Source: an uncultured Elusimicrobia bacterium (GTDB taxonomy: Bacteria; Elusimicrobiota; Elusimicrobia; 2-01-FULL-59-12). From it: 43,981 nt of DNA. The first letter of the stretch is position 1, and every line of letters begins with the position of its first letter. The position numbers and the translations under genes are program-made. The stretch covers positions 1 to 43,981 of the forward strand of contig CAZDML010000004.1 in the NCBI GenBank assembly GCA_964506645.1. Direction: 5' to 3'. Positions 3,646-40,646 of this stretch are shown here, piece after piece. The notes beneath the pieces were generated by a model. The model was not told the origin of the DNA, did no database searches, and was given only the letters and a program-made list of their open reading frames with translations.

Positions 3646-6600
3646 TTACGCTGCAGTTTTGAGAAGAGAGGTGTTGTTCCTAGAGGTTTTGGATCGCTGG
3701 GTTCGGAAAAAGAGCGCTATCGCGCCGATCGCGCTTCCCAGAAGGACCGACGGCAATAGCCAGGGGAATACACGGCGGGTGTTAGGGGTCGATGAGGAGG
3801 ACGAAAGAGTTTCCTTTGATCCGGGTTTCCTTTTAACCAGGCTACGCAGGTAATGACCCGTGAGAGCGACTTGTTTGTAGCCGCTGTCCCAATTTTCGCT
3901 GACGGTGGGATTGAGACCGGAGTTTTTTTGAGCAGCTTGAAGTACGGCGCTTGTGAGACGATTCACGTCCGAAGACACCTGGCCGAACATGGCCCAGCCG
4001 GAGAAGATAAATCCGTTTTCACCCGCTTTCTTGTGATCGCTGTAGGGCGCGTTGGATCCGGTGATGTAGTTGGAGACTAGCGGGTTTGTTGTGCTGCCGT
4101 TCCACATGGTTGTGGTTAAGGTGCGGGACATGCGCAGGACATCGTCCGAAGTAAATGGACCAATGCCAGCTTCCCGCATGAAGAGCATCATCTCCACCCG
4201 ATTGGTGTGATCGGTATCCCAATCTTTGTCTGTGTTGCGGTCGTCTTTAATAAATTGGCCCTTGTCCCAGATCCATCCCTTCCCGGCAGGGGTCAGTCGC
4301 GCCTTAAACGCTCGGCCAATTTTTTCGGCGAGGGTTTTGTATGGGGTCTCCCGGGTTGCCTGATATAAAAAGGTTGCGATATCGCCCAGAAGCCAAGACT
4401 TATCGTTCCACTTCACGCCTTCGCCCCAGTCTTCCGGATCATGCTCTAGCCAGTCGGGATAGCGTGACGCATCGAGATTTAAGCGTCCCTCATCAACACC
4501 CGGCAGCACGCTACTGACAAAACGCACATACGCTTTGGCTTTAGCTGCGTATTTGGACTTGAGCGCCGGGGTTGTCATGATCATCGCGGCCGCACGGGCG
4601 ATCGGCTGGAGGGTTTGCAGCGTATAAACGTCCTCCGGTTTTCCAGAGGAAGCGTCCTTCCAGGCGGGATGTCCGTTCACGGTGGAAACCTTGGCGATCA
4701 TCGCATCGATTTCGTCCAACGCTTTTTGGAACTCCGCGCTGTCCTGCGTGGCTTCCACGGCAGAAAGCATGCCCATGAGCTGGATGCTCACCAGGTAATA
4801 CTGCTCGGCATCCGCGCTTTGAATCATTTCTTTTGTCTCTTGATAGGAGTCTTTTAAGACCTGCTGGTGCAGAGCGGTTGCCTGCGTTAACGACAATTCT
4901 CCGGAGGGTGTAGATTGGGCAGAAAGGTTGCGCGACAGGAGAAGCAGGAGAAGGAAGGGAATGATCGTCCCCGGTCTCCGGATGCTTCCCCCCGCCGCTT
5001 TCTGTTGAAGAGATTTGACGGAGATATAAATAATCGGCACCGTTCGCAAGGCTGTTGTGACCATGTGAAATCGGTTGGTACTGGCTTCTCCAATAAAGGA
5101 CAGGGACGCCACTGAATCGGTCCCGTCCAGCGCTTTGACCCGCAACTGTACAGAGAAATCTTGGGGATCTCTATGCGGTTGCATAACATTTAATACAACG
5201 GTCTGTGGCCCGTTCCGACCGTACCCTGAGGCGGTAAAGACAAGCGTATCCTTGGTGGCCGAGTCGCACGACAAAATAACAGGATCCGTCGGATCGCCCA
5301 AGCGCACCTCGATCCCCTTCACAACACTCCATCCGCGTGACCAGGATTCTTTCGCTTCGGGACGCTGCAGCATTTCTGCACGGACATGTTGACGGTCTTC
5401 GGCGCGATCAAACGACAATGACCCCAGCATGGGCATGGTTCCGGACAAAAATTTCATGAGATCCATCCAAAGCGCATCCTGCAAAGAAAAATCACCCGGG
5501 GTCGCCGTACCGATCACTCCATCGGATGTTTGTCTGTTTGTGGCATTTGTTTTTGCGTGTGTCACGATAGCACTAATCAACCCTGCAACCAAAGCTACTC
5601 CCAGTAGAAGAGGGCTTCCCATCCATGCCTCAAGAGGGTTATCTGGAATACGTAGACCTTCCGATCCAAAAATCGCCAGTAGCTGCGCTCCCCCGGGAAC
5701 AGCGATAGCAGCCATAGCCCACCATCCCCACGTCGTAGCACCTTCCAGCCAGCCTCTTTCGCGAAGATTGCGCAGATCTGCTGAAGTAACCGGTACTGGC
5801 TTGGCATTGCTTCCCTTATAAACACGAGGATGCACCCCACGCGAGCCATAGATCAGGCCACTCAACAAGACGGCGACACTTCCTACAAAAAAGGTCGCGA
5901 TCCCCGCGCTCTCTTCGCGGGATGTCCCTGTATCAAAAGGATGCTGATAGAAATACCCGTGCGTGAGGACCATGGGGAGTGCGATAAGCACGCCCTGAAA
6001 AAAGAGGCCCTGAACCATGGGGGCCAAGACGGTTTGGATAGTCGAGAGCGGTACGCCGCGTTTCATCAGCGGCTGATAGATCAGCCGGTCAAACCAGAAG
6101 CCAATCAGACCGCCTGTGGCGGTTCCTTGAGTTGTCGTGGAGGAATAGCGATCGCTTCGCAAGAGAGCCCGGGCTTCGGCATCGGCAATGACTGTGACGT
6201 CGGAATGCAAGCGAAGCACGGACGACGGTAGTTCAGTTGAAATAGGACCTTCCAGTGCTTTCTGCAGGGCGACGGCTTTTTTGGGGCCGCTCACGAGCTG
6301 CAAAATTTTCCGCGCATCCAGGATGGTTCCCAAACCAACGGTCAGTGCCCATTCTGGAACCAGGCTTGGATCGTTCCCGAAGAATTCCTGATTTTGAACA
6401 CGCGTTCGTGCTGCAATTTTCACAAGATCTGTTCGAGACTCAAAATGGGACCCGGGTTCACGAAACGCTAGATGTCCATTCTCGCCCATCCCTAATACGG
6501 CCAAATCAATGCCACCCAGACTTTTAATTAAGACTTCGTAAGCGGTTGCTTCGGCTGCTGCTGATTCAGCTTGGTCATTAAGCGTGTGGACATGCTCTGC

Positions 6601-8646
6601 GTTAAAACCAAGTTCTGGCTTTCGACTCTGCACATCCAGAAGCGGATCGGTTAGAACGCGTTTAGCATGGGCCGCAAAGCTTTGGTCCGCATAGGCGGCT
6701 GGAATCTGATAGTAGTTGTCCAAGAAAAAGAAATGCACATTGGAAAGGTCGAGAGGATGTTCTTCTAAAAGGCGAACGAGCTCTTGATACATTCCGCGCG
6801 ACGTGCGGTCGGCCGGCAGGAGCAGGTTGGCACGGCCCTTTTCCTGAAGATTTTTCTGGAGAGTGTCATACACGAATCGGGCAGCGGGCTCAGCGACGGC
6901 ATCACGGTCGGGCACACCGACCAAGTTGACGGGATAATCGTTTTCGTCTGCCGGCGCAACAATTGAGGAATTCGTTTGCGAAGGCGGAACCCAATGGTAT
7001 TTTGTGGTGTCGTATGTGTATCCTCGTTTGCCCGCTGCGGCTTCAATACGTTTCCAGGCCTCTGCATTGAGACCGTAAATCTTCAAGAGCGCACGCCGAT
7101 TCAGTTTAAAAATATCGTTCCAGGAAATTTTTCCAGCGCGTGCGAGCGAATTGATCAGACGTGTAATCGCGTGCTGCGTGTCTCCCCCATCGGTCTCACC
7201 TGGATAGAGAAAGTCGCTTCGCTGTATAAAGTCACCTGCGGCGAGCGCAGCCGCGCTGACCCATCGGTTGATATGCGGGACATAGCCGTGCTGCGCTGCG
7301 GCGTGGATAATATAAAGCTTGAAACGTGTGTTCAGGATCTCGTACGGTGCGCTCTCGAATAAATCTTTCCAAGACGTCCATCCTTTCTGTGTAAAGGTAC
7401 CCATGAGATCGTTGAGTGTCCGTTGCACAGCGCCTCGATCTTCCGTTCCCGCAGGTAAAAAATCCTTACGATTCACGCGATCATGCCTGCGCCTCTCGGT
7501 GGCGTGCTCCTCTATTTGTTTACGTAAAACGGCCAGTAGGACATTTGGAGGACTGGGTTTTGCAACCAGAGGGATATCGGGATAACGATCCAGGATAGGT
7601 TGGCTTAATTGCGTTTGCCCACTGCAGATGACCACCGGAAAATGAGGATTTGATGCTCGCAGGCTATCGATCAAATCTCCGCCGTGGCTGGAGATGAGAT
7701 GCGTATCGACAACGGCCGCAGCAAAACGACCGATGCCCAGTTTGAGTGCGTTCTCGACACTGTCTGCTTTTTCAACGACGTAGCCGTTTCTCTCTAAGAC
7801 CACTTCCCACAGGCGTGTAATATGTGCGTCGTCATCTACCACGAGAATTTTAGGACGAGAGGATAATTCTTTCTGAAGGGCGGTTCGAAAACGTCTCTCA
7901 TACGCAAATAATTTAGTCAGAGTATCGATGCGTGATTCTTGCAACATTTTCCGTAGTTGATCTGTGGGGATCTTTGGGATAAGCAACCGATGAGAAGCGA
8001 GGAGTTTGCTTGCTTGTCCGAAGCGTTCAATCATTTCAGCCGTCGCGATGCGGTGAATCAATGACGACGCATCAGGTTCTTGGAAGTGACCGCTATTTTC
8101 GTGAGTGATTTCTCGGCGTTCCTGAAATTCGGCCTGGGCTTGAGAAGCTTCGGTATTAAAAATAGCCGTATTGATCACGACGATCGGCATTCCATCGCTT
8201 TCACGGCGGTAATGGAAGGCAGGAATGTCGTGCTTAAGTTGATCGGTGTAGAGGACGATGGCCGTGGTCCCGTCTTTCTCGGTGGGGGACATGCGATTGG
8301 ACAGGGTCGTTAAATGCTCAGCGTTTTCTTTGAGTTCTTGCTTTGCCCACGCGTGAAATTGCGCGCCGTTGTCGAGGCCCGGAATTTTAAAGGTTCCGAT
8401 CCCTTCGTTGGGGAGAAGGCCAGAAAAGGTAGGCCGGATGTGCGGACTGGCTTCGGAAAGAATGTGCTGCATGCCCAGAACGCGAAGGATAAAGGCTTGA
8501 TCAGTAAAGAGAGATCCAGAGAGCCTCGTGGGCCCCGGCTTACAATCCGCCGGGGCGACAGCAGATAGCGCCGCTGTTGCCGGATCGGCAACCAAGGAGA
8601 CGGCGAGGACTAGCGCGACCCCGCGAGAGAAGTGACGGTTTTTCAT
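3646..8646 (-). CDS. Giant mosaic membrane protein (1666 aa): conserved leader, receiver domain, two alpha-CTD-like repeats, NagB-like domain, TM bundle, internal signal peptide, putative extracellular alpha/alpha domain, C-terminal TM and ..KTAA tail
   Basis: Receiver KILVVDDD..VVDTH..CSG..AKP (~7515-7860); 83-aa tandem repeats (~7017-7470); glucosamine-6-P deaminase fold with LDNY, GMGENGHLAFREPGS, ALTVGLGTIL (~6160-6935); several TMs (~5560-6120). Confidence 0.85.
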   Translation of the reverse strand: MKNRHFSRGVALVLAVSLVADPATAALSAVAPADCKPGPTRLSGSLFTDQAFILRVLGMQHILSEASPHIRPTFSGLLPNEGIGTFKIPGLDNGAQFHAWAKQELKENAEHLTTLSNRMSPTEKDGTTAIVLYTDQLKHDIPAFHYRRESDGMPIVVINTAIFNTEASQAQAEFQERREITHENSGHFQEPDASSLIHRIATAEMIERFGQASKLLASHRLLIPKIPTDQLRKMLQESRIDTLTKLFAYERRFRTALQKELSSRPKILVVDDDAHITRLWEVVLERNGYVVEKADSVENALKLGIGRFAAAVVDTHLISSHGGDLIDSLRASNPHFPVVICSGQTQLSQPILDRYPDIPLVAKPSPPNVLLAVLRKQIEEHATERRRHDRVNRKDFLPAGTEDRGAVQRTLNDLMGTFTQKGWTSWKDLFESAPYEILNTRFKLYIIHAAAQHGYVPHINRWVSAAALAAGDFIQRSDFLYPGETDGGDTQHAITRLINSLARAGKISWNDIFKLNRRALLKIYGLNAEAWKRIEAAAGKRGYTYDTTKYHWVPPSQTNSSIVAPADENDYPVNLVGVPDRDAVAEPAARFVYDTLQKNLQEKGRANLLLPADRTSRGMYQELVRLLEEHPLDLSNVHFFFLDNYYQIPAAYADQSFAAHAKRVLTDPLLDVQSRKPELGFNAEHVHTLNDQAESAAAEATAYEVLIKSLGGIDLAVLGMGENGHLAFREPGSHFESRTDLVKIAARTRVQNQEFFGNDPSLVPEWALTVGLGTILDARKILQLVSGPKKAVALQKALEGPISTELPSSVLRLHSDVTVIADAEARALLRSDRYSSTTTQGTATGGLIGFWFDRLIYQPLMKRGVPLSTIQTVLAPMVQGLFFQGVLIALPMVLTHGYFYQHPFDTGTSREESAGIATFFVGSVAVLLSGLIYGSRGVHPRVYKGSNAKPVPVTSADLRNLRERGWLEGATTWGWWAMAAIAVPGGAQLLAIFGSEGLRIPDNPLEAWMGSPLLLGVALVAGLISAIVTHAKTNATNRQTSDGVIGTATPGDFSLQDALWMDLMKFLSGTMPMLGSLSFDRAEDRQHVRAEMLQRPEAKESWSRGWSVVKGIEVRLGDPTDPVILSCDSATKDTLVFTASGYGRNGPQTVVLNVMQPHRDPQDFSVQLRVKALDGTDSVASLSFIGEASTNRFHMVTTALRTVPIIYISVKSLQQKAAGGSIRRPGTIIPFLLLLLLSRNLSAQSTPSGELSLTQATALHQQVLKDSYQETKEMIQSADAEQYYLVSIQLMGMLSAVEATQDSAEFQKALDEIDAMIAKVSTVNGHPAWKDASSGKPEDVYTLQTLQPIARAAAMIMTTPALKSKYAAKAKAYVRFVSSVLPGVDEGRLNLDASRYPDWLEHDPEDWGEGVKWNDKSWLLGDIATFLYQATRETPYKTLAEKIGRAFKARLTPAGKGWIWDKGQFIKDDRNTDKDWDTDHTNRVEMMLFMREAGIGPFTSDDVLRMSRTLTTTMWNGSTTNPLVSNYITGSNAPYSDHKKAGENGFIFSGWAMFGQVSSDVNRLTSAVLQAAQKNSGLNPTVSENWDSGYKQVALTGHYLRSLVKRKPGSKETLSSSSSTPNTRRVFPWLLPSVLLGSAIGAIALFFRTQRSKTSRNNTSLLKTAA

Positions 8647-11934: not shown

Positions 11935-13884
11935 TTATGCGGCCGTGTCGATGCGTCGTTTGGATTTTCGGGCAGGAAGCGGCGCAGGGTCGGCGTCTTC
12001 CCCTGAGGAATGGAAAATGGTGAGGGTATGCGTCTGGGGATCATATAGCGGCTGCTTCAACAGGTAGTCCGGACTGGCCCAGAACAGCAACTCATCCACT
12101 TCATCGCGCGATAGATACTGTCCGTCACGCACAATGCGAATAATCGCTTCTTCCTGGTTCTGCGAGACCAGAAGTTTCCAGGCGGCCAGTGCGGCCATAG
12201 AAGGAATATCGTGATAGGTGCTCTGCGCGAAACCGCGCAAGCCGCCGGGGACCGCGATTTTTACTGTATGTAAATGTTGCTCGATGCTTTCCCGGGCGGA
12301 TACCAGGAGTCGCAAGAGCACGGGCTGGTCGGTTTTGTGAAGTTCGCTTAAAAGACGCAGACGATGGGTCAGGGTCAGCAGCTTCTTGTACTCAATGAAT
12401 AGAATCCCTGGGATTTTTTCCAGGGCCATGTGAGACATATCCAGTATATGCGTGATCAAATGAGTGTCACGGCCCAGCAGGGTCCTAAAAGCAGCGCCAT
12501 GGTTTTTCCAGATCCATTGCTGTTGAACCAGCAGTTGACCTTCCGGAGGCACGGCGACCAGAACCGTCTTTTTTGTGCTGTGCTTGGAGGGATCCCAGAA
12601 GAGCAGGGGTTTTTTCCTGGGAGCCGCGGCTGATTTTAAAAGAATATCCTCCCACACCCGCTCAAGCATATCGTGCTGCTCCTTGAGCTTAGAGCGCGGG
12701 TGATGCGCGAGCAGGTGCAGTCCTTTGGGTCGGCCGAGATAAATGTCTGAAAACGATAGGCCCGCGTGCGACTGTCTTTCATGTTTGCGATTTTCGTGAT
12801 CCGCATCCGAAGAGGCCGTCCCCTGGGCAGAACGGACGAGGGTCCACAAGGGTTGCTTTTCAGGGAAGAGATCCGGAAATTGGCCGCGCAGAATTTGTAA
12901 ACAGGCCATCAGGTCAAACCCTTCTACGTCCAGCGCATTTTGAATGCGGTCCAGGAGCGCGCGGTGTTGGTGCACAAGCTGGCCTACCGCAATATCCTCG
13001 TCATCCGAATCGGTAGGCGGATGAATGATCAGGGCTGATTGAAGTGCACGGGTAAAGTCGCGCAATTTTTCGATATCTGCAGGCCCGGCTTCTCCATGGG
13101 TGAGCCGAAGGCTGATCGCCTGCATTTCTGGAGCCACTGATTCGATGAGCATCGGATAAATGTTCACGTCGATTTCGTCCACGCCAGAAAGAAATTCGTT
13201 GCGCAAGTGATACCCTTGCAATGCCAGAAGCCGGAGCGCGGCTTCCGGGTAGTGCGCCAGTCGGACCGCCCTTTCTGAAAATCGGACGTGGTAGGCGGCC
13301 GCGGCATGAACCATCCAGTCCCACACGGTGGGCAGCGTATTCGGCCAGGCATCCTCAGTTTTGACCCAGCCGTCCAGGAGATGTTGGGCTGTCTTAAGCA
13401 AGGGCGCGGCCTGAGCTTGCGGAATATCCCCTTCCAGAATTCGCTCCATGACTCGAATCAAATTTTCGTCGCGAGGGTTTTTTAAATCCACATCGAGCAA
13501 ACCGGCGCTAAGGAAAAAACGGTCCCAGGCGGACTCTCCGCTGCCGCTTTTGTGAATTCGAACACCGGGCGGAAGGCTCATGCCTATCGCGATGGGAATT
13601 CCGGAGGGATGGTCCTCGGCATGGCTCCATGTCCAGTTTTTATGAAGAGTCAACGGGGAGTTCTGCCGGATTTTCCAATCGATTGGGGAATGTCCAGTAA
13701 AGGCAACGACCAGTAGAACTGTAAGCGCTTCGGATTCCGTCCGGGGGGTGTAAGACGCATCCCCTGGAGCCGCGTTTGAACGAGGTATTTCTACTAACGG
13801 GAGCGCAGCGGCGACCGCAGGCTCAAAGCCCAGGCAGAAAGCAAGCACCACCGCGGCGCAGCGAAGGAAGAGTTTGTTCGTCAT
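11935..13884 (-). CDS. Hypothetical protein (649 aa from MTNKLF) of the conserved-leader/AA-tail family
   Basis: Leader MTNKLFLRCAAVVLAFCLGFEPAVAAA aligns in register with the two giant ORFs; ends KRRIDTAA. No recognisable domain. Confidence 0.8.
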   Translation of the reverse strand: MTNKLFLRCAAVVLAFCLGFEPAVAAALPLVEIPRSNAAPGDASYTPRTESEALTVLLVVAFTGHSPIDWKIRQNSPLTLHKNWTWSHAEDHPSGIPIAIGMSLPPGVRIHKSGSGESAWDRFFLSAGLLDVDLKNPRDENLIRVMERILEGDIPQAQAAPLLKTAQHLLDGWVKTEDAWPNTLPTVWDWMVHAAAAYHVRFSERAVRLAHYPEAALRLLALQGYHLRNEFLSGVDEIDVNIYPMLIESVAPEMQAISLRLTHGEAGPADIEKLRDFTRALQSALIIHPPTDSDDEDIAVGQLVHQHRALLDRIQNALDVEGFDLMACLQILRGQFPDLFPEKQPLWTLVRSAQGTASSDADHENRKHERQSHAGLSFSDIYLGRPKGLHLLAHHPRSKLKEQHDMLERVWEDILLKSAAAPRKKPLLFWDPSKHSTKKTVLVAVPPEGQLLVQQQWIWKNHGAAFRTLLGRDTHLITHILDMSHMALEKIPGILFIEYKKLLTLTHRLRLLSELHKTDQPVLLRLLVSARESIEQHLHTVKIAVPGGLRGFAQSTYHDIPSMAALAAWKLLVSQNQEEAIIRIVRDGQYLSRDEVDELLFWASPDYLLKQPLYDPQTHTLTIFHSSGEDADPAPLPARKSKRRIDTAA

Positions 13885-13900
13885 TAAAATACCTGCGAAA

Positions 13901-13928
13901 AGTATAGGGGGTTTTGAGCAGCAGACAA
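13901..13928 (-). promoter_or_regulatory. Putative promoter TTGTCT-N16-TATACT, 16 nt upstream of ATG 13884
   Basis: Hexamers read on the minus strand. Confidence 0.5.
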
Positions 13929-14049
13929 ATAGAGCCAAAGTCTATAAATAGGGAGAAAAAGACCCTAAAAAGCCTGGGCCCTTAGGCCTGTATTTTTGCC
14001 CTTCCGATCCATAGATCCACCGACGAGAAGTCGATAGACTTTAGAACGC

Positions 14050-17000
14050 ATGAAATCCCACCTTTTCACACGAATTATTGCGGCCGTTTTGTGCCTTGCG
14101 ATGGGGCAAGAACCTGCAGCACAAGCAGCGCAATGGGCAACGGCCAATGAGCAACGGGCTACACATTGCGCATCGCGCATGGCCCATCGCGACGTTTCTC
14201 CTTTTTCCTCCCAAGCCTTGGTGGGCTGCCTCATCGCAGGCTTTGTCGGCTTTCATGCGCTTCACCAGGGGCATGCCGAGGCTATGCAACTTCGTATCAA
14301 TGCTGGGACCTTGCTGGGGATTTTAACGGGTTCAGCCGTCCTGGGCATTATGAAGTCCGGTGACAGTACCCCTCCTCCTATCGCTCTACAGATTCAGTAC
14401 CTTTCCACGGCGCCTCCCCCGATCTATCAAGACGCGATTCGACATTTTTTTGATGAAGAGGATTACCTTAGTCTTCGCGAAAGCGTACGACTCTCGGGTG
14501 GCCCGGACAATTTGGATGGCTATCGAGTAGCGCTCTTTATAAAAACGGTGCAAAGTGCAGAAATAGCCATTGTTTCTGAAGTCCGCTATGAAGCTATTCA
14601 CACCGTTACAGGAAAAACACATAAAGGGAAATTCGCCCTGCACTCGTCCTGGTTGGACAACCCGGAAGATCTACAGCAGGAGCTGTTAACTCTTGAACGA
14701 CTCCGCAATGACTCGCCCGACTTGTTCGAGAGCATTCCCGCACTCTATACCGTTGCTAGGATTTTGATCGATAGAAATCAACCGATCATTTTCGGAACGA
14801 CGGACTGGGTTCCGGTCGAAGATATTAATTTCCGTCTGAACCCATCGGGAACGCATCTAGAGCCCTACATCACTTATTTGGATCAGCCCTCCGATTCCTT
14901 ATCCCCCGAAGACGCTGATTGGGTGACAAGAGAAATCGCCCGCCTCTTAATTTCCACGGCATTAACTGGAACTACTCTGGTCCCGTCACTCAATACCGGC
15001 ATGTTTGCGCTAGAGCGGCGATCGGGGGATAGGCCTAAAGTCTGGCTTGTCGGAGGAACTCCGCTCAGAGAAGAAGCGATTGAGTCTGCTGTCGGGGCAC
15101 TCGCAGAGCAATTTTTAATGCTTCTGGGTCTTCGACTCTATGATGCCGAAGAGCATCGAGCGAAGAACATGGATACAGGGTTACCCACGCACCCGATTTT
15201 TACCCCCGAACAGTTGCTGGCCGGTTTCCATGCGATGCTCATAGATAAAGTAGGTGCAGTTTCCGGCATGAAATTATTCATCGCCTTTGTCGCTCAGCTG
15301 GGATACAGCATTGAGCGCCTCAACACATTAGAAGAATATACCGGCTTCACCCCCGAAGCACTGACGGAGCGTTTAACAGCCTATTTACACACTCTTCATC
15401 CCAGGGCCATCGTTGCAAAGTCTCCCTGGGGCCAACTCTACGGAGAACTGAATGAAGGCAAAGAGCATCTTCAGACTCTTCTGAAAAAAGAGGGTCTTCA
15501 GATCCTGCTTCGGGCTTACCCGCAGATCCAAGAACTAATCGATACCGCGCGTTTTGCTGACCTGAAAGTTCTCATCGAAGACATCATTGCGCCGGAGCAG
15601 GAAACAACGATTTTGTTCGAAGCGCCGTTCATCCAGTCCCTGAAATATCTTCGACAAATCCAATTTCTAAGAAAAGAGGATGCGGTTCCATTTGTTCGAG
15701 ATGTTTTCAAAGCCATCGTGGGCCAGTTTGTAAACGAACATCAGATTGGTTTTGTGGCAGGCCAATCCGAAGCGATTGCTTTGGCTGTGGAACAGCTTCA
15801 AGCGCTTTATGAGGAAGTTTGGGGGTGGACCGATGATTTGCAAACCTTCATGGTGGAACTTGTGGCTGCGCGCGAGTGGAGTGTCGAAGAAGCCAGCCAC
15901 AAACTAAAACGTCTTCTGGTTGCACTCACCGAGCGGCACCGTACTTACAACCAAAGCATCCGTCTGCGAAAACCCGGCTTTGAGAACAAGCCCTATGCCA
16001 TGACAGGGGGAAGTTCTGAGCGAGCCGTGGTGCGGTGGCCCTACGTGGGTATTGAGGGACAACAGCCCTTGTCCCATACGGGTGTTTGGCCACAAGCTCA
16101 GGCGCTTTTGGACTTTCTGAGCACGCCAACCACGAAATTGCCGAAGTATGCCGACATCATTGTGATTTTTGGCAATGACCTGCTGGCCTCCTCCCGAAAA
16201 GGCGCGGAACTCTATAAGCAATACACAGCGGCGGCCAAAAAACTAGGACGTCCTTTCCCGAAAATATTCGTGACGGGCGGCAGCGGCCGGGACACGCCGG
16301 CGCATTGGGTGAAAGGGGAAGCTCACGCGCATCAGCAAATTCTCCGTGAGCACGCTATTTCACCAGGGCGCATTTTCCGGGAATCAAGAGCAACGAATAC
16401 AGAAGACAATGCCATTGCCGCAGCCAATTTCTTCCTTCAGCGCGGATATACCGAGGAGGATCCTGTCGATACGGTGGTTGTCATTCAAAGCCCTGCCTCG
16501 ACCCTGCGTGCACAGTTGACGCTCGAAAAGTGGGCTGGAACATTGGCCCGGCGGGTCGTGGGTGTTGCCCCTTTTGATCCCGATATCGAGCGGTCCGACC
16601 CGGCCACACGGCTGCGGCTCCTGGAGACCGCCGTCGGTGAAATTGGCCGTCTTCTGGATTATCCGGGCAAAGGCTATTTCCGTGCTGTCGAGATTCCGGA
16701 TGAGATTCTTCAATTAACGTTAGATGTCCAACGCTCACTGCTCACCGATCCTTCTCTGCGGCCAGAAACGCGTACGGCACTGATTCGTTGGGGAGATGTG
16801 ATGAGTGTAGAACTCGTGCGCAGGGCTTTGCCGGCGGGCCGCAGCCCTCAGCACTTTCCGCCTCCGGCTCCATTCGAACCTACGACGCGAATCCTAACAG
16901 CTTCTGGCAATTCCAATATGAGTTATTTGAACCGTCATACGTCGCAATGGTCTTGGATGCGTAGGGAATTGTGGCCCACCATGATTCAAGCCAAAGTCGC

Positions 17001-20000
17001 GGCTGGACGAAAACAGATCGAGGTTATTATTCTTGGGGCCTCCACCGGGGAAGAACTGGCTCGTGCGTATCATGAAATCATTTTGGCTTTGCAGGACCAA
17101 CATGAAGACCCGCGGCAATGGATTCTTCGAATCCAAGGATGGGAAATCGATGCAGGGACGGCAGCCGCTGCCGCGCGGCGCTTAGCGGGCGAAGAACCCT
17201 TTGTGTATGACTTGCCCGAGCGTGCCGACAAAGCGCCTCTTCACCTGGATTATGCTCAGCAATGCGTGAAGACGCTCAATAGTTTTCTGGGTGTGCCTGG
17301 CCATTCTTTAGAAGTGCATCAGGCAGATTTCCAGACAGCACATTTGGATGAGCTCTATCCAGAGACGGACCTCGTTATCGAAAATCAAGTCTTCTATCAG
17401 TTGGGTCTGACGAATGAGTCCATAGCGTTTTATGAACGCTTAGCCCGATGGGCTCGACCCTGGATGGTTGGGGGCGAGTTCTATTATTTGCATCAGTACG
17501 GAGGACGCCCTGTGCGCGAAGTTATGCATGAGACCCCTCTATCGGCGGGAGAACGTACGCATTTAGTCAGCTCCCCTTTAGTTATATCTCCATCAACCGT
17601 CTCTCCCATCCCAAGCATCAAAGTGGTGGCCATCGATTGGAACAGCACGCTTTATTCAGAAAGTAAGCAAACCCTACGGAAGGGAGCACGGGAATTCTTA
17701 GAAGGTCTCGGTGATCGTGGCATCACGGCTTACGTGTGGAGCAATAACCCGGACGTCTGGAATCATGTGATCCGATTCGACCTGACGGGTTTGCTCCAGA
17801 AGCCTGCTTGGATTATTAAGGATAAACGGGCCCAGTTAACGCAGTTGATAGAGCATCTTCGGGTTCCTCCCGATCAGATTGTGGCGATGGGTGATGAGGC
17901 GGCGGATATTCTCGTGGCCAAACGCTTGGGAACAAAAGCCATTCTCATTCGAAGTCGCAGCAGCGTGGATACGTCGCTTCTCGTAGGAAAAATGGTGCCG
18001 GATGCCGTCATCCCCAATCTGTATCATCCCGACAATATCGCAGATCTCATCGCCGGTGGCGTAAACCCCGACCCGGCGGGCCGTCGCTGGACCTCCTTTT
18101 TTGTGCCGCTGCAAGGAAAAATCATTATGGCCATTCCTCAAGACGGCCTTACGGGGGATGAACTGGAACGCTATGTTCGCCGTGTCGCGCCATTTCGGGA
18201 AACAAGACAATTTGTCTGGCCTTTAATGCCCGTGATGATTGTGCCCACGCTCGCCATGGCCGGGCTGCTCAGCGTCCTGCCCTATTCCGACCCTCATTCT
18301 CTGACGGCTAAAACGCTCATTTTTCTTGCTGCGGCCTCGTTCGGCGCTACGGGCGCGGTTGTGAGTGCTTGGCTCTTTCGTCTCGCCCACAGCAAGGTCT
18401 ATCACGTATCCGGACAAGAGCAACATGCGTATATTGGCGCACCTGTTCCACCGACCGCAGACGAAAAACCTCTTCTTTTTAAACGCGGACTGGTGTATGC
18501 CTTGGCGCTGGTGCTTCCTCTCTTGGGTGCTGTGGCGAGCGTCCTTTTGGGTGCGAATGCAGGAGTCGCCGCTGGACTTGCGGTCACATCCCTGGGTGCT
18601 CCCTGGGCCATACACAGCTATCGCAACAATAAGCCGTTCGGGCAGATCTTTGCGGGTCATCCTGTCTGGAAGGAATTGTTGATGGCGCACCCGTCGGAAG
18701 ACTTCCCATCGCTTTATCAAGAATTCTTGAACTTTTTGCGCTTCCTGGGACAGGAAAATCATCGTACTGATAAACCCACAACTCTCTTGCGAGACGCCCA
18801 CCATGTATTAAATCGTTGGAACATCAAACGGGTGGCAAATATTGCCATTCCTGAAGTGGTGCGACCCGATTTTGAAATGCTGAATGCGGGTGTACGACAG
18901 TCGCTTGCTGGCGTGGGCTGGGCTTCTCGAGAAGATATTCTGCAACGCCTTCGCTCCCTGGCTCATGCAGCGCCTCGAAATGAGACAGTCCTTTCCTTGG
19001 GGAGCAGTGATGGTGAGGGACTTCCTTTGCTGGAACTGGTCTTGTCTTATCGTGAAGTCACTCTTGTGGATTTGGACGATGTGAGCTTGCAGCGCGGTAT
19101 GGAGCGGCTACGTCGTGATCTTGTGCAAGATAAGCTTGGGTTAAACGCAGAACAGATAACAGCCATTCTCGCTCGTGTTCATGTGATTCGTGAAGATATT
19201 TCGGGAATTGTCGAAGAATTTACGGGTCACATAGATCATATTCTTCGCGAAGAAACGTCAGATGCCCGCCTTGTGGATGCTTTGGTTACATACCTTCGCT
19301 CCTATGGATCACGCTCTTCTTGGCCCGCACCTGCGTTCGGCGCCCACGATCTTGTTATTTGTCCACTCGTTATGACGCAGCTGCAGTCGGCCTTACCTCA
19401 CGTGATGCAAAAGCAGATCGATGCACGTATTTCTCATTTATCTCGAGAGCAACTCTTGGCCCTGATGGGTGCCGTGAATGAATTTACAGATGCGGTCATG
19501 AAGGCCCACCTGGCACACCTCGAGCAATGGGTAAAACCCACCGGGCATCTCTACTGGTCGGATACGACGGACGAGGTGGAATTTGATATTCGCGGACAAC
19601 AGCAAGCTCTCCCGATGATATCAATGGAGGCGTTCAAAGCTGCGGCCTCCAAGCATTTTGATGTTCGTCCCCTGGATCTCTGGACGTGGATTCAGACGAT
19701 TCCGACCGTCTCCATTTTGGGTCAGCTCTTCTTTGTTGAAGCGTTGGCAATGCGGCCGCATCGTGTGATCTCGGCAGGCATGCGAGTGAGAGACCGCCGA
19801 GGCCAGGAACGTGAGATTGATGAGGTTCGCGAGGATGGCAAGGTTCATCTCACAGGGGATGCCCCTCATATCTACATAAGTATGGGACTTCTGGAGATTG
19901 TTCCTGTTATCTCGCAAGAGGCCAAGAGTGAGGACACAGAGGAAGATGTAAAGCAGGGCACCCCCAGGAATTCCTATTTCTTGCTGCTTGTGCTTTTCTT

Positions 20001-23000
20001 GTTTACTGGCGGTTTGGCCCGTAGTGCGAAAGCGCAGGATGTTTCTATGCCGCATTCGTTCGTGACAGAGATGGTCTGGAGTGATTTTCCGTGGATTTCA
20101 GCATTGCTCGCGGTTGTCATCCCTGCGGCGGCCTGGGTGATATGGAAATACGTTCCTCGGTTTTGGGTGCCAGCCCCTTGGGTCGCTCAGATGGATTCTG
20201 CGGAGACCCGCTGGGAAGGTTGGCAGCAGATCCCTGCAATAGAACCAGAGACCGATGAAGTCGACGCACTCTATCACTTTTATTATTGGAGTCGTCACCC
20301 CGACTGGCAATCCTTGGCACCTCAAGATTGGAAGCAGTTAAAAGGGTTTGTCGAAAGCGCTCAAAAGCGTCAGGCTGCAGAGGGTTTCCCGGTTCTGGTT
20401 CTCCCGCCGGATCTGCTGGCGACGCTGCTCGCACAGCCGGAGGGCCTGGCCGAGCTCCTGCGCCGCGTTCATCCTTACACCCTCCAGTCGCTCGAGCATG
20501 CCGACTCGCCGGTGTCGCGCTTCACCATGCATGAGGGCGTGTACTACCAGCTTTTTGCAGAAAAATTACTTGGACGTCTGCCGGAAGGGGGCGTGAATCT
20601 TATAAATATTGATCCGCATTCGGACGCGATTTACCAGGCCCACGAGTATATGTCGAATCGCTTTTTGCGGGGCACAAATCAGGAGAAGGCCACGCAGCGG
20701 CTGCACTATAAGGGCGTCACAGATTTTAATTGGATCGCCGCCGCGGTCGGGGATGGGCTGGTGCGCGAAGCCGTGACCATCCCGCCGAAGCAAACGATCT
20801 GGACCGTGGGTCATATTCGCCGCCACGCCGAAGGGTGGCCGATGGTTATGGAGACCGATATCAGCGATCTCGGTAAAGCAGCTGAGTTTACTGAGGAGGC
20901 CCCGCTCTGGGTCACCGTGGATATGGATATGTTCAGCTTGCGCTCTGAATTTGTCCCTCAGCAGACGATTTATCATCATGGCGAACGGACGGCACGCGCG
21001 ATCATCGAGCTAATGGTTGCAGATCTTGGGTTGCATCGAAAGAAGATCGATCGCTTGTCGACGGCGGTCTCTCCAACCTACATCTCACTAAAGGCTACCC
21101 CTAAACAGATCGACATGTACCAGAGGGTTACCGAGGAAGTGCTTTCACCGCTGCTTCGGCCCAAGGCGACGGCAGCCCCAACTCCGATGGGGTCGTCCCC
21201 CGTACTCAAGGTACTCTTGGAAGCGTTGGGACTTAGCGATGCGGTCATTGCCAACTCGGAAAATGTGCAAGAGACGGGAGCGCCCTATACCCTCAAGCGG
21301 TTGCAGCTTCCCGTGCGATCGAGTCAGCATGGCGTCCCCCAGGGCCTGGATATTCTTCGACATGAGTTGACACTGCATTACCTAGGCCCCCTGAGTATGG
21401 ACTTGGTGTATTCTAAAGAGGGCACGTTGGTGGCCATTTCGCCGACCCCCAGCACATCCCTTCCTAAAAAACTGTTTTACATCGATGCGACGCCGTACCA
21501 GTTCACTTTTCCGCAATCCTCGGAGGCACGCGCAGAGTGGGAGAAATTTGTAGCGCAATACAAACGGGACCAGGATGTCGTGCGTGTGTATCTGTCCTAC
21601 TTCAAACGATCCAGCGGATTAGAGCCACGACGGCTCAATAGCCTGGCCCCACTCGCGCACGCCCATTACGATGCTGCCGATAAAAAATGGGAGGTCGCCG
21701 GCATAAACATCCATTTATTCGATATTACGCGCTGGCTTTCGGCCGCTGCGAAACTCGGACGCCGTATCGTTTTGCCTGTCTTTCCTACGGTGTATCATCC
21801 GCAGTCCACCCAACTATCAGAATCCGACCGCAACTACTACAAGGCGTTGCACGAAGAGGTGTCTTATAAAAAGGACCAGCGTATTCTGGTTGTCGGTCCC
21901 GGATCCGGACTGGAAGTCTGGGCGTTAGCCCAGAAAACAGAGCTTCCAATTTCTGTCATTGGCATCAATCCGTTGGAAGTCGCCAACGTGAAAGCGCTCG
22001 CTGCGCTCGGGGGCTTTTCCGTTAATATTCTCGTTGGCGATAACGTCATCGATGAAAACGGCCATCCTCGATTCCCGGGAATAGAATTCGATGTCATCGT
22101 CTGGAACATGCCGGCGCTGGAACATCCGCTAACCTACGACTTAACGCATAAGCAGTTGCATCAGTATCACGATGGCGATTTGGGCGGCGAAACCCTCTCC
22201 CGTTTTGGCATTGGACTTCTAAAAGTTCTCGCTCCACAAGGTTACTCTCTTATATGGAACCGCTTGCCGCGCGGTACAGAAAATCCTGCACAGGTGATCC
22301 GAGACTACCTGCATCTGAAGGTAGAGGATTCACAGACGACTTCATTTGAAGTGGAGGAATTAGATCGCGGTGTCTATCGGATTTCCCGCGCGCCTTCGGT
22401 CGCACAGCGCGTGGGAATGGGCATGCCGCACCATCTCTACAACCTTTACCATCCGGAGGCTGTACTGACGCGTTCGGGGGATTCCTCCATGAAACCAAAA
22501 CATTCGCGGCGGCCCTGGGGTGTGATTGTTCTGGGCTTAGCTTCGGGTTTTGCAGGCGGGATGTCCCTTCTACTGGCGCAGAACGGCACGCTGCATGAGA
22601 TGTATCCTGAGGTTCTTCTTTTTACGCTCATCAGTGGTGTCGTGACAAGCCTTGTGTGGGCCTCCCTGCAGGAAATGCATGCTACGAAAAGTGAGTCGTA
22701 TTCTTCACGTCTGAGTATCTACTTAGCGCTGTCGGTTTTGTGTGTTGGCAGTTGTATGCCTCTATCCCTGGGTATTTTTACCGGTGTCTTTATTCATTTG
22801 TTTATTTCGCTCAGTCTTCGCTCCTCCGATGATGCGGTAAAGACGCCGGAAGCGGTTTTGTCGCGACTCTGGCCCGCCTTTTTTGCGTCTTTAGAATCTC
22901 AGCAGCCGGAGGAGCGTGAGCGCGCGGAAGCTGCCTTGATCGATGGGTTGTTCGTTTTTGCCATGCATCCACGTCTCTATCTACGGCGCATTATGACGCT

Positions 23001-38208: not shown

Positions 38209-38464
38209 AGTGTTTCCTTTCTCGCTGATTCGCTTTGCGAGCACTGATAATTCGGCATACGGTGTCATCCTTGCGCAAAGTAACGATCACGAGCAGCAGA
38301 CCTTCCTCATATCTTGTTTCAGATCGTGACGAATGGAGAGGATCATCTTCAATCCGATGGTTCGGATCATCAAAAATCGTGATGGCCAGCTCAAACAAAA
38401 CCCCATGCTTGATAACGTTCGTAAGCGCCTTCCCAAAATCCCACTCATAATCTGTATATACCAT
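38189..38464 (-). CDS. brnT: BrnT family ribonuclease toxin (possibly with short internal deletion)
   Basis: EWD..K..N..KHG..FE.A..IFDDP..RIISARKA..ER..YE. Confidence 0.88.
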   Translation of the reverse strand: MVYTDYEWDFGKALTNVIKHGVLFELAITIFDDPNHRIEDDPLHSSRSETRYEEGLLLVIVTLRKDDTVCRIISARKANQRERKHYEAQRR

Positions 38465-38684: not shown

Positions 38685-40646
38685 TTATGCAGAGAACCCA
38701 AAGGCCACCTTCGCCAGGGTTTTCTTACGCTCTTCTTCAATGCGTGCGCGCATGAAGGGTGCTGTCAGCGCATCGGCTGCTGTACCGAAGAGTTTTTCGG
38801 CGGCTTGAGCGAGCTCCGCGGGAAGTTCCATGCCCTGATCCACATACGATTGAATCTGGCTTGCCATAGATTCCATTTTCTGGATGCGCCGTACCACAGA
38901 CGTCGTCCAACCCACAAAACTTACAGCAGCACCGACGGCAAGGAGCAAAGCCATCGGGCCCGTGTCCATTGTGGCCACCGCAGGGATGCCAAAGCCATCC
39001 GCAAAAGCGGCCGAGGGAAAAAGCAAGAGCGTCGCGGCCAGCGTGAGCGTACGCAGGATCCATTTTTTCTTTCCTGTTTTTGCTTTATCGCTCCAAACAA
39101 GCCCCCCCACAAAAACTCCAAGGCTTAAGACACCCCGGACGATCGTGGTCCACGGATTGCTCGGCTGCTTCGGAGTTTGCATATCTTCATCAAAAAATGT
39201 GCCTTTGGGTTGTGAAGCTGCGGAATCGGCTTTTTTGGGGGCGAGAGGCATTTCCATACTTACCCCACCCACAGTTGCTTTTTCTTGGGTAGGAACGCTT
39301 GCTGAAACAGCCGCAGTCTCACGAGGTGCTTCTACTGCCATGCGGAGCTGCGGACGGGAAGAGCCCATGGGAGCGTCTTGTCCCAAAGCCATGCTCCCTG
39401 CGCCAGCGAGTACAAGTGCTAGCATCGCGCGTACGCTCAGCCGGCGGACAGATCCCGCAGCAGCGGCCAGACTCGCCGTTACTTGTCCTGCCGCATGAAA
39501 AGGACGGGTAAGACCCGCTGCGGCCCAATCCTTACCGGAGGACAACTGCTCCGGTGTCAAATGCTTGCCCAGCATGCGGTTGATGTAGAGCATCTCATCG
39601 ATTTTGGAGTGCTTGCGCACGTTGGGGGAAATCACGGCATAGCTTAAGCCTTGCTGTTTTAAAAGCTGGGTAATTCCATCGGTATGGAAGCCGCCCACGA
39701 CCATGACGGTGGTGGTCTGGTGATCAAGAGCGCGCAACTTCAGGCTGTTCTTAAAAAGTTCTTTATCGCGCATGAGGGCAACGACGTAGTAGTCAATCGC
39801 CGCGGACACCGGCATGAGCAGGGTGTTCGCCTCATCTTTTGGCAGCGCCTGTTGCAGGTGCAGCAGAGCCGCGCTGGCATTTTTTACGGCTGGGCCAAAT
39901 TCTTCTGGCGTGAGATCGAGATTCGCAAGTTGTTCCACGGCCGCAATTTCGTTGTCGAGCTCGGCAGCGTTGGTGCGAGCCATGGGTGTTTCCTTATTAA
40001 CGCGCTGAAGCGCCCCGCGGAGAATCGATAGGTTTTCGCGCAGTGCCATACGGGCCTGATACGACTTGGCAAAGAAATCGAGAGCCGATTGATAGAGCGG
40101 CATCGTCTCAATACCGTAGAGGCTGCCCTCGCCTTCGGTGACCACATAATGAAAGTCACCCGGCATTTCACCTTGGCGGATCAAATAATCGGCAGCCTGG
40201 GTGCGGGATTTTGCGTCGCCTATTTTCTGCATGGCCGAGACATCAACAGGACCTTCCTGGCCTTCAACCGCGATGCGGTTGGGAAGCAGGTTCATGCCTT
40301 TAAGCGTTTTCAAAATTTTGGAGATCGCAAACTGAACCGAGCGGTTGGCGTGGAGATCCTGAATCAGGATGACGTCCGGTGTGAACCCGGTGGTCAATGT
40401 TTTCGCCGAGTAGACATCGGATACGAAGCCAATCGATTTGGAGAGCGGTAGCGAGAAAGAAGCTCCCATCGGTGCCGCGTGAGACGTCACCGGTACCGAG
40501 GTTCCCGCGATGGCCGCGCTTAAGCTCACGGCCATAAACTTCGTGGCCATGCGGCGGCGCTGGGTGTTCGAGAAGGTCGATACCATGACCGGCTCAAGCG
40601 TCTCGCGATTAAAAATCCATTGAATAAAGTCGGTTAAACGTTTCAT
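38685..40646 (-). CDS. Exported protein with TIKI/TraB/ChaN-like N-terminal domain followed by internal signal-peptide-like segments and TMs
   Basis: GGAG RBS before MKRLT (40646); signal ..SVPVTSHA; ILIQDLH..IAVEG..LYGIE..RDKELF..VVGGFH..SYAVISP (~39618-40375). Confidence 0.8.
   Translation of the reverse strand: MKRLTDFIQWIFNRETLEPVMVSTFSNTQRRRMATKFMAVSLSAAIAGTSVPVTSHAAPMGASFSLPLSKSIGFVSDVYSAKTLTTGFTPDVILIQDLHANRSVQFAISKILKTLKGMNLLPNRIAVEGQEGPVDVSAMQKIGDAKSRTQAADYLIRQGEMPGDFHYVVTEGEGSLYGIETMPLYQSALDFFAKSYQARMALRENLSILRGALQRVNKETPMARTNAAELDNEIAAVEQLANLDLTPEEFGPAVKNASAALLHLQQALPKDEANTLLMPVSAAIDYYVVALMRDKELFKNSLKLRALDHQTTTVMVVGGFHTDGITQLLKQQGLSYAVISPNVRKHSKIDEMLYINRMLGKHLTPEQLSSGKDWAAAGLTRPFHAAGQVTASLAAAAGSVRRLSVRAMLALVLAGAGSMALGQDAPMGSSRPQLRMAVEAPRETAAVSASVPTQEKATVGGVSMEMPLAPKKADSAASQPKGTFFDEDMQTPKQPSNPWTTIVRGVLSLGVFVGGLVWSDKAKTGKKKWILRTLTLAATLLLFPSAAFADGFGIPAVATMDTGPMALLLAVGAAVSFVGWTTSVVRRIQKMESMASQIQSYVDQGMELPAELAQAAEKLFGTAADALTAPFMRARIEEERKKTLAKVAFGFSA

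Follow-up and report, generated by a model that had tools for sequence, protein, structure and literature searches.

Do bacteria make polyproteins that signal peptidase cuts at internal signal peptides? This question was raised by a stretch of 43,981 bases from an uncultured Elusimicrobia bacterium (contig CAZDML010000004.1), which was analysed at its full length and is called the window below. With a G+C content of ~54%, it carried ordinary bacterial genes and four unusual large open reading frames (ORFs), designated A, B, C and D. An earlier sequence-only reading had marked five internal segments of ORFs A, B and C as signal-peptide-like and had proposed that cleavage at these sites divides the giant products into cytoplasmic and exported modules. 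Fossil signal peptides, left by whole secreted genes that were fused in frame, had been named as the alternative. According to the present analysis, the five segments probably act as topogenic helices, in N-in to C-out orientation, of giant inner-membrane proteins that are mosaics built by in-frame fusion. The strongest case came from the C-terminal part of ORF A.

An internal signal in ORF A

The product of ORF A comprised, in this order, a leader, a receiver domain, a NagB-like domain, a bundle of four transmembrane (TM) helices, an orphan domain of ~190 amino acids (aa) and a C-terminal unit (Table 1). The C-terminal unit began with the internal signal peptide termed site 1; an (alpha/alpha)6 module, its TM anchor and a tail with AA at its end followed. 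Site 1 led into a module of 381 residues, which was closed by the TM helix and the basic tail. The same layout of anchor and basic tail was present in a 1447-aa ORF of locus L081.

A word-indexed search with the C-terminal 566 aa of A gave no match, and the module family was found only by an exhaustive HMMER search with A aa 1035-1666 as query (E<=1e-3). This search matched 184 proteins, all over A aa ~1226-1630. The 190 residues upstream of site 1 were matched by none of the 184 hits. The sequence leading into the module was surveyed in 96 homologues that covered its N-terminal part, among 149 matches listed (of 184), and the following counts apply to these listed matches. An N-terminal hydrophobic signal stood directly before the module in 32 of the 96 and a lipobox-like signal in another seven, giving 39 homologues with a signal. 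Non-hydrophobic sequence of extracellular type preceded the module in 26, and the lead was short or truncated in 29. Two homologues, P0053 and P0059, had a hydrophobic segment upstream of an internally placed module. The arrangement with the module behind more than 1200 residues including a TM bundle and cytoplasmic-type enzyme domains was found in A and in none of the 96.

In the multiple alignment, the A sequence RRPGTIIPFLLLLLLSRNLSA/QSTPSGELSLTQATALH (RRPG...LSA/Q; a slash marks the putative cut here and below) fell on the N-terminal signals of stand-alone homologues. Alignment partners were P0055 (MNSAKKARW…GAFPALAA/DAPYTQAQLAALH), P0084 (…LTHA/ADLLDFRALH) and P0096 (…AARA/ATPYSLDQMVSIH). 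The position of site 1 is the one at which stand-alone homologues have their signal peptides and predicted signal-peptidase sites.

The module was modelled by AlphaFold2 as a confident (alpha/alpha)6 toroid, with a predicted local distance difference test score (pLDDT) of 87 and a predicted template modelling score of 0.89. Against the PDB, the profile of the module family matched alpha-1,6-mannanases of glycoside hydrolase family 76 (GH76; E 1e-6). Its Foldseek neighbours were all (alpha/alpha)6 six-hairpin enzymes, with TM-scores of 0.35-0.5. Conserved columns of the family were D233, N282, G286, G306 and T234/H236. The module thus resembles secreted GH76 alpha-1,6-mannanase-like glycosidases in profile and fold, and its stand-alone relatives carry Sec or lipoprotein signals. 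In contrast, its identity to solved enzymes was only 10-15%, and the TM-scores are those given above.

For site 1, the aligned signals of the homologues bear out the alternative of a whole secreted gene fused in frame. Together, the data on this region show that a polytopic protein was extended in frame by a complete gene, which encodes a membrane-anchored, glycosidase-like protein of predicted exported type and has kept its signal peptide. The retained signal presumably must still start translocation, because the module family is extracytoplasmic. Two units that occur separately elsewhere, with the signal of the second unit at the junction, were found at site 1 of ORF A only. Conservation of a fusion together with its cleavage site across the lineage was not found: A was unique among the homologues listed, and the helix end varied in the family of ORF C.

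The base composition of the ORFs was heterogeneous. G+C content at third codon positions (GC3) was 0.52 over the first 1100 codons of A and 0.63 over the last 560, with 0.71 within the signal segment. Change points were located at ~codon 1108 in A, 1814 in B and 379 in C (permutation P<0.01 each). This heterogeneity inside A, B and C, with change points near junctions, is consistent with a mosaic origin. The DNA at the A junction reads …CAA CAG AAA GCG GCG GGG GGA AGC ATC CGG AGA…. The ATC codon, one change away from ATG, has a G-rich, Shine-Dalgarno-like run 5 nt in front of it, and the two Gln codons (CAA, CAG) are each one transition away from a stop codon. Speculatively, this DNA might be the scar of a former gene start.

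A segment resembling site 1 was seen in a C-family ORF of >2569 aa at locus L093, where LFAWAIPFLLLLTGLLGTANRSNA/QNV at aa 860-885 compares with IIPFLLLLLLSRNLSA/QST of A. No similarity was detected between the sequences downstream of these two segments.

Sequence features of the flagged segments

Coordinates were checked by translating the window, and the signal layout was assessed by a crude rule-based scan and by inspection. All five segments were recovered in the frames of A, B and C assigned by the sequence-only reading, each with a basic n-region, a hydrophobic h-region and a site resembling those of signal peptidase I (SPase I). The earlier coordinates were right except for the end of site 5, where 39072 was one base too long and 39071 is correct. 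The amino-acid numbers given there are those of the +1 residue of each putative cut. The segments were located far from the ends of ORFs that run without interruption. Just upstream of the five sites, no in-frame ATG, GTG or TTG with a Shine-Dalgarno sequence was found, and the segments are therefore truly internal.

Each of the five had basic residues on its N-terminal side and a small-x-small site at -3/-1. By inspection and crude scan, the tripartite layout of Sec/SPase I signals (basic n-region, h-region of 7-15 residues, small residues at -3/-1) fitted all of them. The N-terminal location of such signals was not shared, as the segments start at aa 1223 in A, at aa 1973 and 3144 in B, and at aa 405 and 530 in C. 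The charge-free stretch was 14-17 residues long in the flagged five versus 20-28 in most other helices of these proteins.

The flagged five are a selection from ~25 hydrophobic segments in the giant ORFs of the window. By our reading, roughly half of the TM helix ends of these proteins, in either orientation, conformed to the -3/-1 rule, and the motif therefore adds little. A global residue-shuffle test gave a signal-like count of 10 in the real proteins versus a mean of 3.2 in shuffled ones; the test is weakly informative, as hydrophobic composition alone yields such stretches. A sixth A/Q segment, which opens a four-helix bundle of B, was absent from the earlier list, as were the signal-like N-terminal leaders of A, B, C and D.

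Table 1. Features of ORFs A to D, of related ORFs and of neighbouring genes. Positions are those of the window unless a locus is named; strand in brackets.
Feature	Position (strand)	Protein position or length	Sequence or remark
ORF A	3646..8646 (-)	1666 aa	mosaic membrane protein
Leader of A	8560..8646 (-)		MKNRHFSRGVALVLAVSLVADPATAALSA; compared as MKNRHFSRGVALVLAVSLVADPATAA
Receiver domain of A	7606..7848 (-)	aa 267-347	PF00072 E 3e-10; several NCBIfam response-regulator models match
NagB-like domain of A	6202..6912 (-)	aa 579-815	PF01182 E 6e-23; TIGR00502 nagB E 9e-54, under equivalog cut-off
Four-helix TM bundle of A	5554..6033 (-)	aa 872-1031	loop charges: both flanks cytoplasmic
Site 1	4915-4980 (-)	A aa 1223-1244; cut A1243/Q1244	RRPGTIIPFLLLLLLSRNLSAQ; written RRPGTIIPFLLLLLLSRNLSA/Q; from Q1244 QSTPSGELSLTQATALHQQVLK
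Predicted exported module of A	3772..4914 (-)	aa 1245-1625	divergent (alpha/alpha)6 six-hairpin, GH76-like
C-terminal anchor and basic tail of A	3649..3771 (-)		VFPWLLPSVLLGSAIGAIALFF-RTQRSKTSRNNTSLLKTAA; …ALFF-RTQRSK…TAA
C-terminus of A	3649-3654		
ORF B	14050..23730 (+)	3226 aa	string of cytoplasmic-type enzyme modules
Leader of B	14050-14130 (+)		MKSHLFTRIIAAVLCLAMGQEPAAQAA
Site 2	19966-20037 (+)	B aa 1973-1996; cut A1995/Q1996	RNSYFLLLVLFLFTGGLARSAKAQ; written RNSYFLLLVLFLFTGGLARSAKA/Q; from B sites (Q1996, Q3170) QTIRPNVDAMTLASK
Return helix after site 2	20086..20145 (+)		FPWISALLAVVIPAAAWVIW, then KYVPRF; brings chain back to cytoplasmic side
Sixth A/Q segment	22492-22581 (+)	B aa 2815-2844	KPKHSRRPWGVIVLGLASGFAGGMSLLLA/QNG
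Site 3	23479-23559 (+)	B aa 3144-3170; cut A3169/Q3170	KGRWWNTFLKGLFFGLFFVVPALLDAQ; written KGRWWNTFLKGLFFGLFFVVPALLDA/Q
C-terminus of B	23722-23727		
ORF C	38685..40658 (-)	657 aa from TTG start, 653 aa from ATG	
Conserved N-domain of C	39504-40469 (-)	aa ~64-385	
Site 4	39378-39446 (-)	C aa 405-427; cut G426/Q427	RRLSVRAMLALVLAGAGSMALGQ; written RRLSVRAMLALVLAGAGSMALG/Q; from Q427 QDAPMGSSRPQLR
Site 5	38997-39071 (-)	C aa 530-554; cut A553/D554	KKKWILRTLTLAATLLLFPSAAFAD; written KKKWILRTLTLAATLLLFPSAAFA/D
C-terminus of C	38688-38693		
ORF D	11935..13938 (-)	649 aa	probable start ATG at 13884; A/B-type leader; C-terminus -TAA
Leader of D	13804-13884 (-)		MTNKLFLRCAAVVLAFCLGFEPAVAAA
C-terminus of D	11938-11943		
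Same leader, ORF adjoining C-family gene	L081:1566-1650		MFKRLIRGLALFLTVCLIADPAAAQA
Same leader, ORF adjoining C-family gene	L082:8722-8800		MLKRIHRFIALFLSAALIVDPGLAAV
Internal lipobox-like segment of C-family giant ORF		P0005 aa ~349-360	LAAC
Internal lipobox-like segment of C-family giant ORF		L105 aa 651-668	…FTMVLAAC
Internal lipobox-like segment of C-family giant ORF		L107 aa 1218-1233	…GMAALSAC
GT2 and two PMT_2/ArnT-like membrane glycosyltransferases	23777-28233 (+)		immediately downstream of ORF B
ThrC	31141-32406 (+)		
BrnA-antitoxin-like ORF	37924-38268 (-)		adjoins C
Right-handed beta-helix protein	40795-42867 (-)		

Sites 2 to 5 and membrane topology

The modules of ORF B were DUF218, a CheR-like module ('ILGASTGEE' motif, by eye), a HAD phosphatase-like module and a HemK-like methyltransferase (E 3e-5). 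They were separated by TM bundles of four, two and four helices, which were followed by one last helix. A return helix lay ~22 residues behind site 2, and the chain went on for ~790 residues, the HemK-like methyltransferase among them. Both flanks of site 2 are therefore predicted to be cytoplasmic, and the site would form the first half of a hairpin and not the head of an exported module. Site 3 was the last helix of B, with only a 56-residue tail behind it, ending in RRAA. GC3 in B rose from 0.52 to 0.60 around codon 1814 (P ~0.003), a step that could reflect a fusion boundary, imprecisely placed, ~160 codons ahead of site 2. No homologues of B besides B itself were obtained by a word-indexed search and by genome and metagenome pattern scans. 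Searches of PDB sequences with B segments and with the C-family profile gave nothing useful. Immediately downstream of B and on the same strand, GT2 and two PMT_2/ArnT-like membrane glycosyltransferases were encoded; they may be linked to B functionally through envelope glycan work.

The product of ORF C consisted of a leader, a conserved EreA/ChaN-like N-domain (aa ~64-385) and a variable four-helix tail ending in SA. The C-family profile covered 27 metagenome loci. Leader and N-domain formed the conserved part of the family, with the invariant motifs IQDLH.N, VEG and GGFHT, and the tail was a fast-evolving transmembrane tail. The N-domain had no Pfam or PDB sequence match. It was modelled with a pLDDT of 77, and Foldseek returned EreC (E 2e-3), then ChaN and HopBA1, at a TM-score of only ~0.25. 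The N-domain also headed metagenome ORFs of 2043, 2114, 2137 and 2435 aa and truncated ORFs of >2400, >2560 and >2569 aa. A BrnA-antitoxin-like ORF adjoined C. It was 76% identical to L087:247-534, which likewise adjoins a metagenome C-family gene, and the neighbourhood is therefore conserved.

In the four-helix tail, sites 4 and 5 corresponded to the first and the third helix, and site 4 was thereby the first hydrophobic segment past the N-domain. This segment was compared in seven proteins including C. It was clear in six and weak in P0003. Besides C itself (…SMALG/QDA), the ends were …ALLG/QVV in L081, …MMSG/QVR in L085, …LAAV/QQA in P0004, …NLGS/RAQ in L082 and …TTAQA/M in P0003. P0005 had RRAVLGSVALAAC with a lipobox-like LAAC. 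Loss of the AxA/Q end from a helix that is kept had been named as evidence against cleavage. The outcome for site 4 was mixed: the helix was clearly kept in six of the seven, and the small/Gln end was kept in part, with G/Q in three of the seven.

On the orientation of this family, charge rules disagree between its members. Charges put the N-domain inside for C, L081, L082, L085 and P0005. In L088, the first helix after the N-domain had opposite charges (N-out/C-in), and in L083, L087, L100 and L102 the leader was the only strong hydrophobic segment. If the leader works as a signal peptide, sites 4 and 5 would face the cytoplasm and signal peptidase could not cut there.

When ten sub-segments were searched against Pfam at E<=1, most modules remained orphans, and the modules behind internal signals in relatives gave no above-threshold match either. 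Judged by their domain matches, the large modules of these giant proteins are cytoplasmic-type enzymes. They would need ATP-driven phosphorelay, sugar phosphates or S-adenosylmethionine (SAM) and therefore belong in the cytoplasm. In the receiver domain of A, the phospho-acceptor positions were occupied by DD, D, S and K-P, and this favours the cytoplasm as its compartment. The NagB-like domain is glucosamine-6-phosphate deaminase/6-phosphogluconolactonase-like and represents a cytoplasmic-type sugar-phosphate enzyme. For a count of Lys and Arg, the enzyme modules were assumed to lie inside, and both loops and the flanks of helices were scored. The inside:outside ratios were 18:6 for A, 30:4 for B and 12:4 for C, and in this charge-based topology all flagged segments run from inside to outside. 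The topology needed for the proposed division into cytoplasmic and exported modules fitted site 1 only. At site 2 both flanks are predicted to be cytoplasmic, and at site 3 only the 56-residue tail follows. Sites 4 and 5 have short loops behind them or lie in the tail on which the charge rules disagree.

In the favoured explanation, formerly separate units would have been joined in frame to give giant mosaic inner-membrane proteins, and the flagged segments would act as start-transfer or signal-anchor sequences. The inherited signal at site 1 would open the Sec channel in the middle of the chain, so that the module reaches the periplasm. Sites 2-5 would be either short transmembrane helices of an ordinary sort or fossil signals older than site 1, and their small-x-small ends would be what many helix ends carry anyway. 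Cleavage by SPase I is possible, most plausibly at site 1, and the favoured explanation does not need it.

Glutamine at the +1 position

Gln was indeed found at +1 in four of the five flagged sites, as the sequence-only reading had noted. Gln content of these proteins was 4.2-4.7%, and the binomial P is 2e-5 at 4.4% Gln, with a choice of sites that was post hoc. The proposed link to the Q-rule of Bacteroidota did not hold. The contig is Elusimicrobiota-like (see below), and the ordinary signal peptides of the window had no Gln at +1. In four ordinary N-terminal signal peptides identified by eye, the +1 residues were T, P, E and R, and a fifth had a lipoprotein-type Cys. A crude predictor recovered two of the four (those with T and E). 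At related Elusimicrobia loci, ~1 of 10 crude signal predictions had Gln at +1, several of these predictions being dubious. The sample of ordinary signals is small. In homologous metagenome giant ORFs, Gln followed ~1-3 of ~45 signal-like segments in our count, and three of 45 gives P = 0.32. A periplasm-facing glutaminyl cyclase gave no Pfam match among the subset of window ORFs that was scanned.

The Q-rule is a phylum-wide property of most N-terminal SPase I substrates, is tied to glutaminyl cyclase and has been described as Bacteroidetes-specific (PMC5837995, PMC10653852). The present sites resemble it in that Gln stands right after a small -1 residue behind a signal-like helix. They differ in their Elusimicrobiota-like host and in the ordinary signals of the window. 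By these comparisons, Gln at +1 is a local enrichment that is possibly real, but it is not the Q-rule, because the ordinary window signals and most homologous giant ORFs are without Gln.

Shared leaders and C-terminal alanine

The leaders of A, B and D shared a fixed spacing of basic residues, ~12 hydrophobic residues, [DE]P and x-x-A-A. The same leader was found in ORFs adjoining C-family genes at L081 and L082. BLAST similarity among A, B, C and D was weak and confined to the leaders (~25-40 residues), and paralogy among their modules was rejected. In most cases (A, B, D and two relatives), a second hydrophobic stretch, weak in A, followed 20-40 residues past the leader and could return the chain to the cytoplasm. 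On sequence grounds, the shared leader looks like a dedicated sorting signal or a hairpin anchor. No internal signal-like segment was found in ORF D.

All 17 complete ORFs assigned to this class ended in Ala, and ten of them in -AA. For comparison in the same sequences, C-terminal Ala was found in 13 of 123 ORFs of 150-599 aa and in none of 13 other ORFs of at least 600 aa. Besides A, B, C and D, the ending was recorded at L081, L082, L087, L088, L090, L094, L100 and L102. The usual order was a TM helix, then a basic cluster, then a short tail leading up to the final Ala, which may serve as a degron or in sorting. Leader and C-terminal Ala together suggest a dedicated recognition system at both termini, and they may point to an unrecognised sorting or quality-control signal.

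Alternative explanations

Several observations weigh against the reading of the five segments as topogenic helices of a mosaic membrane protein. Their 14-17-residue stretches and several textbook c-regions (Pro at -6, AxA) are more signal-peptide-like than anchor-like. Gln stood at +1 in five of ~19 N-in to C-out segments of A-D (P ~0.001), counted by a crude site picker that was blind to the +1 residue but designed after the data had been seen. The G/Q end of site 4 recurs in relatives, as given above. In relatives, three segments inside the chain combined a basic n-region and an h-region with a lipobox-like end, versus ~0.3 expected by chance in a rough estimate, and these may be internal signals kept in processable form. 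Finally, the leaders of A-D resemble cleavable signal peptides, which clashes with a cytoplasmic first module unless the second weak helix forms a hairpin.

True bacterial polyproteins, routinely cut by SPase I at one or more internal signals, would draw on the canonical n/h/c layouts with short h-regions (AKA/Q, P-x-x-A-F-A/D, P-A-L-L-D-A/Q) and on the coincidence of site 1 with the signals and predicted cleavage sites of stand-alone homologues. The Lgt/LspA pathway would be added in relatives, where P0005, L105 and L107 have lipobox-like internal signals. The new N-terminal Gln may cyclise to pyroglutamate, and both the local enrichment of Gln at +1 and the G/Q end kept in C, L081 and L085 fit such processing. 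The cytochrome b/c1 precursor FbcH of B. japonicum provides a natural precedent, and cleavage would render such fusions selectively neutral. However, cuts at sites 2, 4 and 5 and at the sixth segment would only chop hairpins or bundles and yield no exported module. Gln is lacking in the ordinary window signals and in most homologous giant ORFs, and about half of all helix ends satisfy the -3/-1 rule. The A fusion is a one-off among 97 family members in the matches listed, with no conserved polyprotein design. Routine cleavage is thus judged unlikely on balance, and the reading as topogenic helices is retained.

A broader version would make these ORFs an undescribed class of giant modular envelope proteins of Elusimicrobiota-like and other uncultured bacteria, matured as true polyproteins by signal peptidases I and II. 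The marks of the class would be the shared leader, the invariant C-terminal Ala and working internal type I and II signals from swallowed secreted or lipoprotein genes. The two peptidases would set modules free or anchor them anew, with both termini recognised by a dedicated system. This version is doubtful and is put forward tentatively.

The giant proteins could instead be exported through real cleavable Sec leaders as surface or secreted multi-enzyme or effector-like proteins. The internal segments would then serve stop transfer or insertion into a target membrane, and several flagged ones would face the wrong way for signal peptidase. A conserved leader (basic, 12-13 hydrophobic residues, [DE]P/AxA) was present on A, B, C, D and every family member examined, and in L083, L087, L100 and L102 it has no strong hydrophobic company. 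The C N-domain is weakly EreA/ChaN-like, and many members of the EreA/ChaN superfamily are extracytoplasmic. The N-out/C-in charges of the first helix after the N-domain in L088 point the same way. Against this, export would badly reverse the positive-inside rule in A (a 39-residue loop with ~6 Lys/Arg outside) and also in B and C, and would give an extracellular position to a phospho-receiver, to a domain resembling sugar-phosphate deaminases and to SAM methyltransferases. The second hydrophobic stretch past the leader of A, B, D and two relatives can return the chain. Export of the whole proteins is improbable.

An artefact or pseudo-fusion by assembly or sequencing error, recent stop loss or internal start sites would fit the unique architecture of A among the matches listed, the near-start, near-stop and Shine-Dalgarno-like sequences at its junction and the GC3 step-up nearby, but it is hardly credible. 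The junction would need two independent changes, and chance cannot produce frames that stay open for 1666 and 3226 codons. Giant ORFs of similar build, 2000-2500 aa long and with signals inside them, were also present on independent metagenome contigs, and internal translation starts were ruled out by the start-codon survey of the five sites.

Comparison with known systems

Cytochrome b/c1 of Bradyrhizobium is the textbook case of a fusion with a retained internal signal. Cleavage of FbcH at this signal was reportedly shown by experiment (Thony-Meyer, James and Hennecke, 1991, PNAS 88:5001). Fused cytochrome b/c1 genes of Bradyrhizobium japonicum and relatives have been reviewed (PMC4986455). 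As in FbcH, one ORF joins a polytopic membrane unit and a periplasmic unit with its own signal at the junction. ORF A also shares the layout of a TM bundle, a cytoplasmic linker domain, a signal peptide, a periplasmic module and a C-terminal anchor. The halves of FbcH, in contrast, are subunits of one complex, and their fusion is conserved in the family. The partners in A are without a known functional link, the fusion occurs in one of 97 members among the matches listed, and its cleavage is putative.

Viral polyproteins provide a second comparison. The glycoprotein precursors of flaviviruses and bunyaviruses are cut by host signal peptidase, in the eukaryotic endoplasmic reticulum, into short conserved products by proven cleavage. 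They share with the present ORFs several internal signal-like helices, one long ORF and an alternating topology. They differ in that most flagged helices here separate cytoplasmic modules or lie within helix bundles. In a study on the endoplasmic reticulum, a cleavable signal inside an already translocating chain neither was cut nor stopped transfer (PMC2114505).

Giant proteins of Omnitrophota reach 10,000-85,000 aa, with C39 or S8 peptidase domains proposed as cutters, and their cleavage into several products has been raised as a question (bioRxiv 10.1101/2023.11.21.568195). Similarities are the uncultured lineage, very long ORFs, many TM helices, divergent enzyme-like modules and N-terminal signals. 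In contrast, the proteins described here have 650-3200 aa and no peptidase domain was detected in them, and the candidate cutter would be signal peptidase. The flagged segments also resemble start-transfer and signal-anchor helices of polytopic inner-membrane proteins, with basic residues on the cytoplasmic side, alternating orientation and hairpins or four-helix bundles between soluble modules. They are shorter than is usual for such helices, and at least one of them, site 1, demonstrably derives from a signal peptide of the cleavable type.

The present case belongs with kinds already described, namely giant TM-rich proteins and fusions that carry a signal peptide within the chain. New membrane-protein topologies are known to arise when a fusion keeps the signal of its secreted partner in the interior of a long chain, but this route has very rarely been documented. 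An uncultured phylum provides a clean and datable example in ORF A, with a cytoplasmic sensor/enzyme chain, a TM bundle and an exported glycosidase-like gene in one frame. If internal signals are cleaved, fusing to a downstream secreted gene would cost nothing, which would help to explain the growth of giant ORFs. Cleavage would also matter to the question of a single working chain versus several products in giant TM-rich bacterial proteins. For annotation, signal-like helices found within giant ORFs are markers of old gene boundaries and compartment changes; they are not evidence of processing without proteomics.

Host lineage and gene content of the window

ThrC was 81, 77, 78 and 67% identical to its counterparts in four Elusimicrobia metagenome-assembled genomes (MAGs), and the next best matches were cyanobacterial with 60-64%. 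The gene order o300-TatD-MetRS-HolB-Tmk was the same in those MAGs, with proteins 52-73% identical; the candidate TatD, MetRS, HolB and Tmk genes were named by eye, synteny and alignment. In this comparison, the contigs of the MAGs end before the positions of C and B. Judging from the ThrC identity and the shared synteny, the contig is Elusimicrobiota-like and not Bacteroidota.

Ordinary genes of the window encoded ExbD, TonB, a CoA-binding protein, an alpha/beta hydrolase, an RlmD-like protein, GT2, two PMT_2/ArnT-like glycosyltransferases, a Sel1-repeat protein, ThrC, a 3D-domain protein, a BrnA-like antitoxin and a beta-helix protein with a C-terminal domain of the type IX secretion system (T9SS) type. 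ThrC had an N-terminal zinc-ribbon (NinF-like match). Its closest relatives outside Elusimicrobia were in cyanobacteria, and this affinity may reflect lateral transfer. The right-handed beta-helix protein, encoded on this Elusimicrobiota-like contig, had a weak C-terminal match to T9SS-type sorting domains (CHU_C/FlgD_ig).

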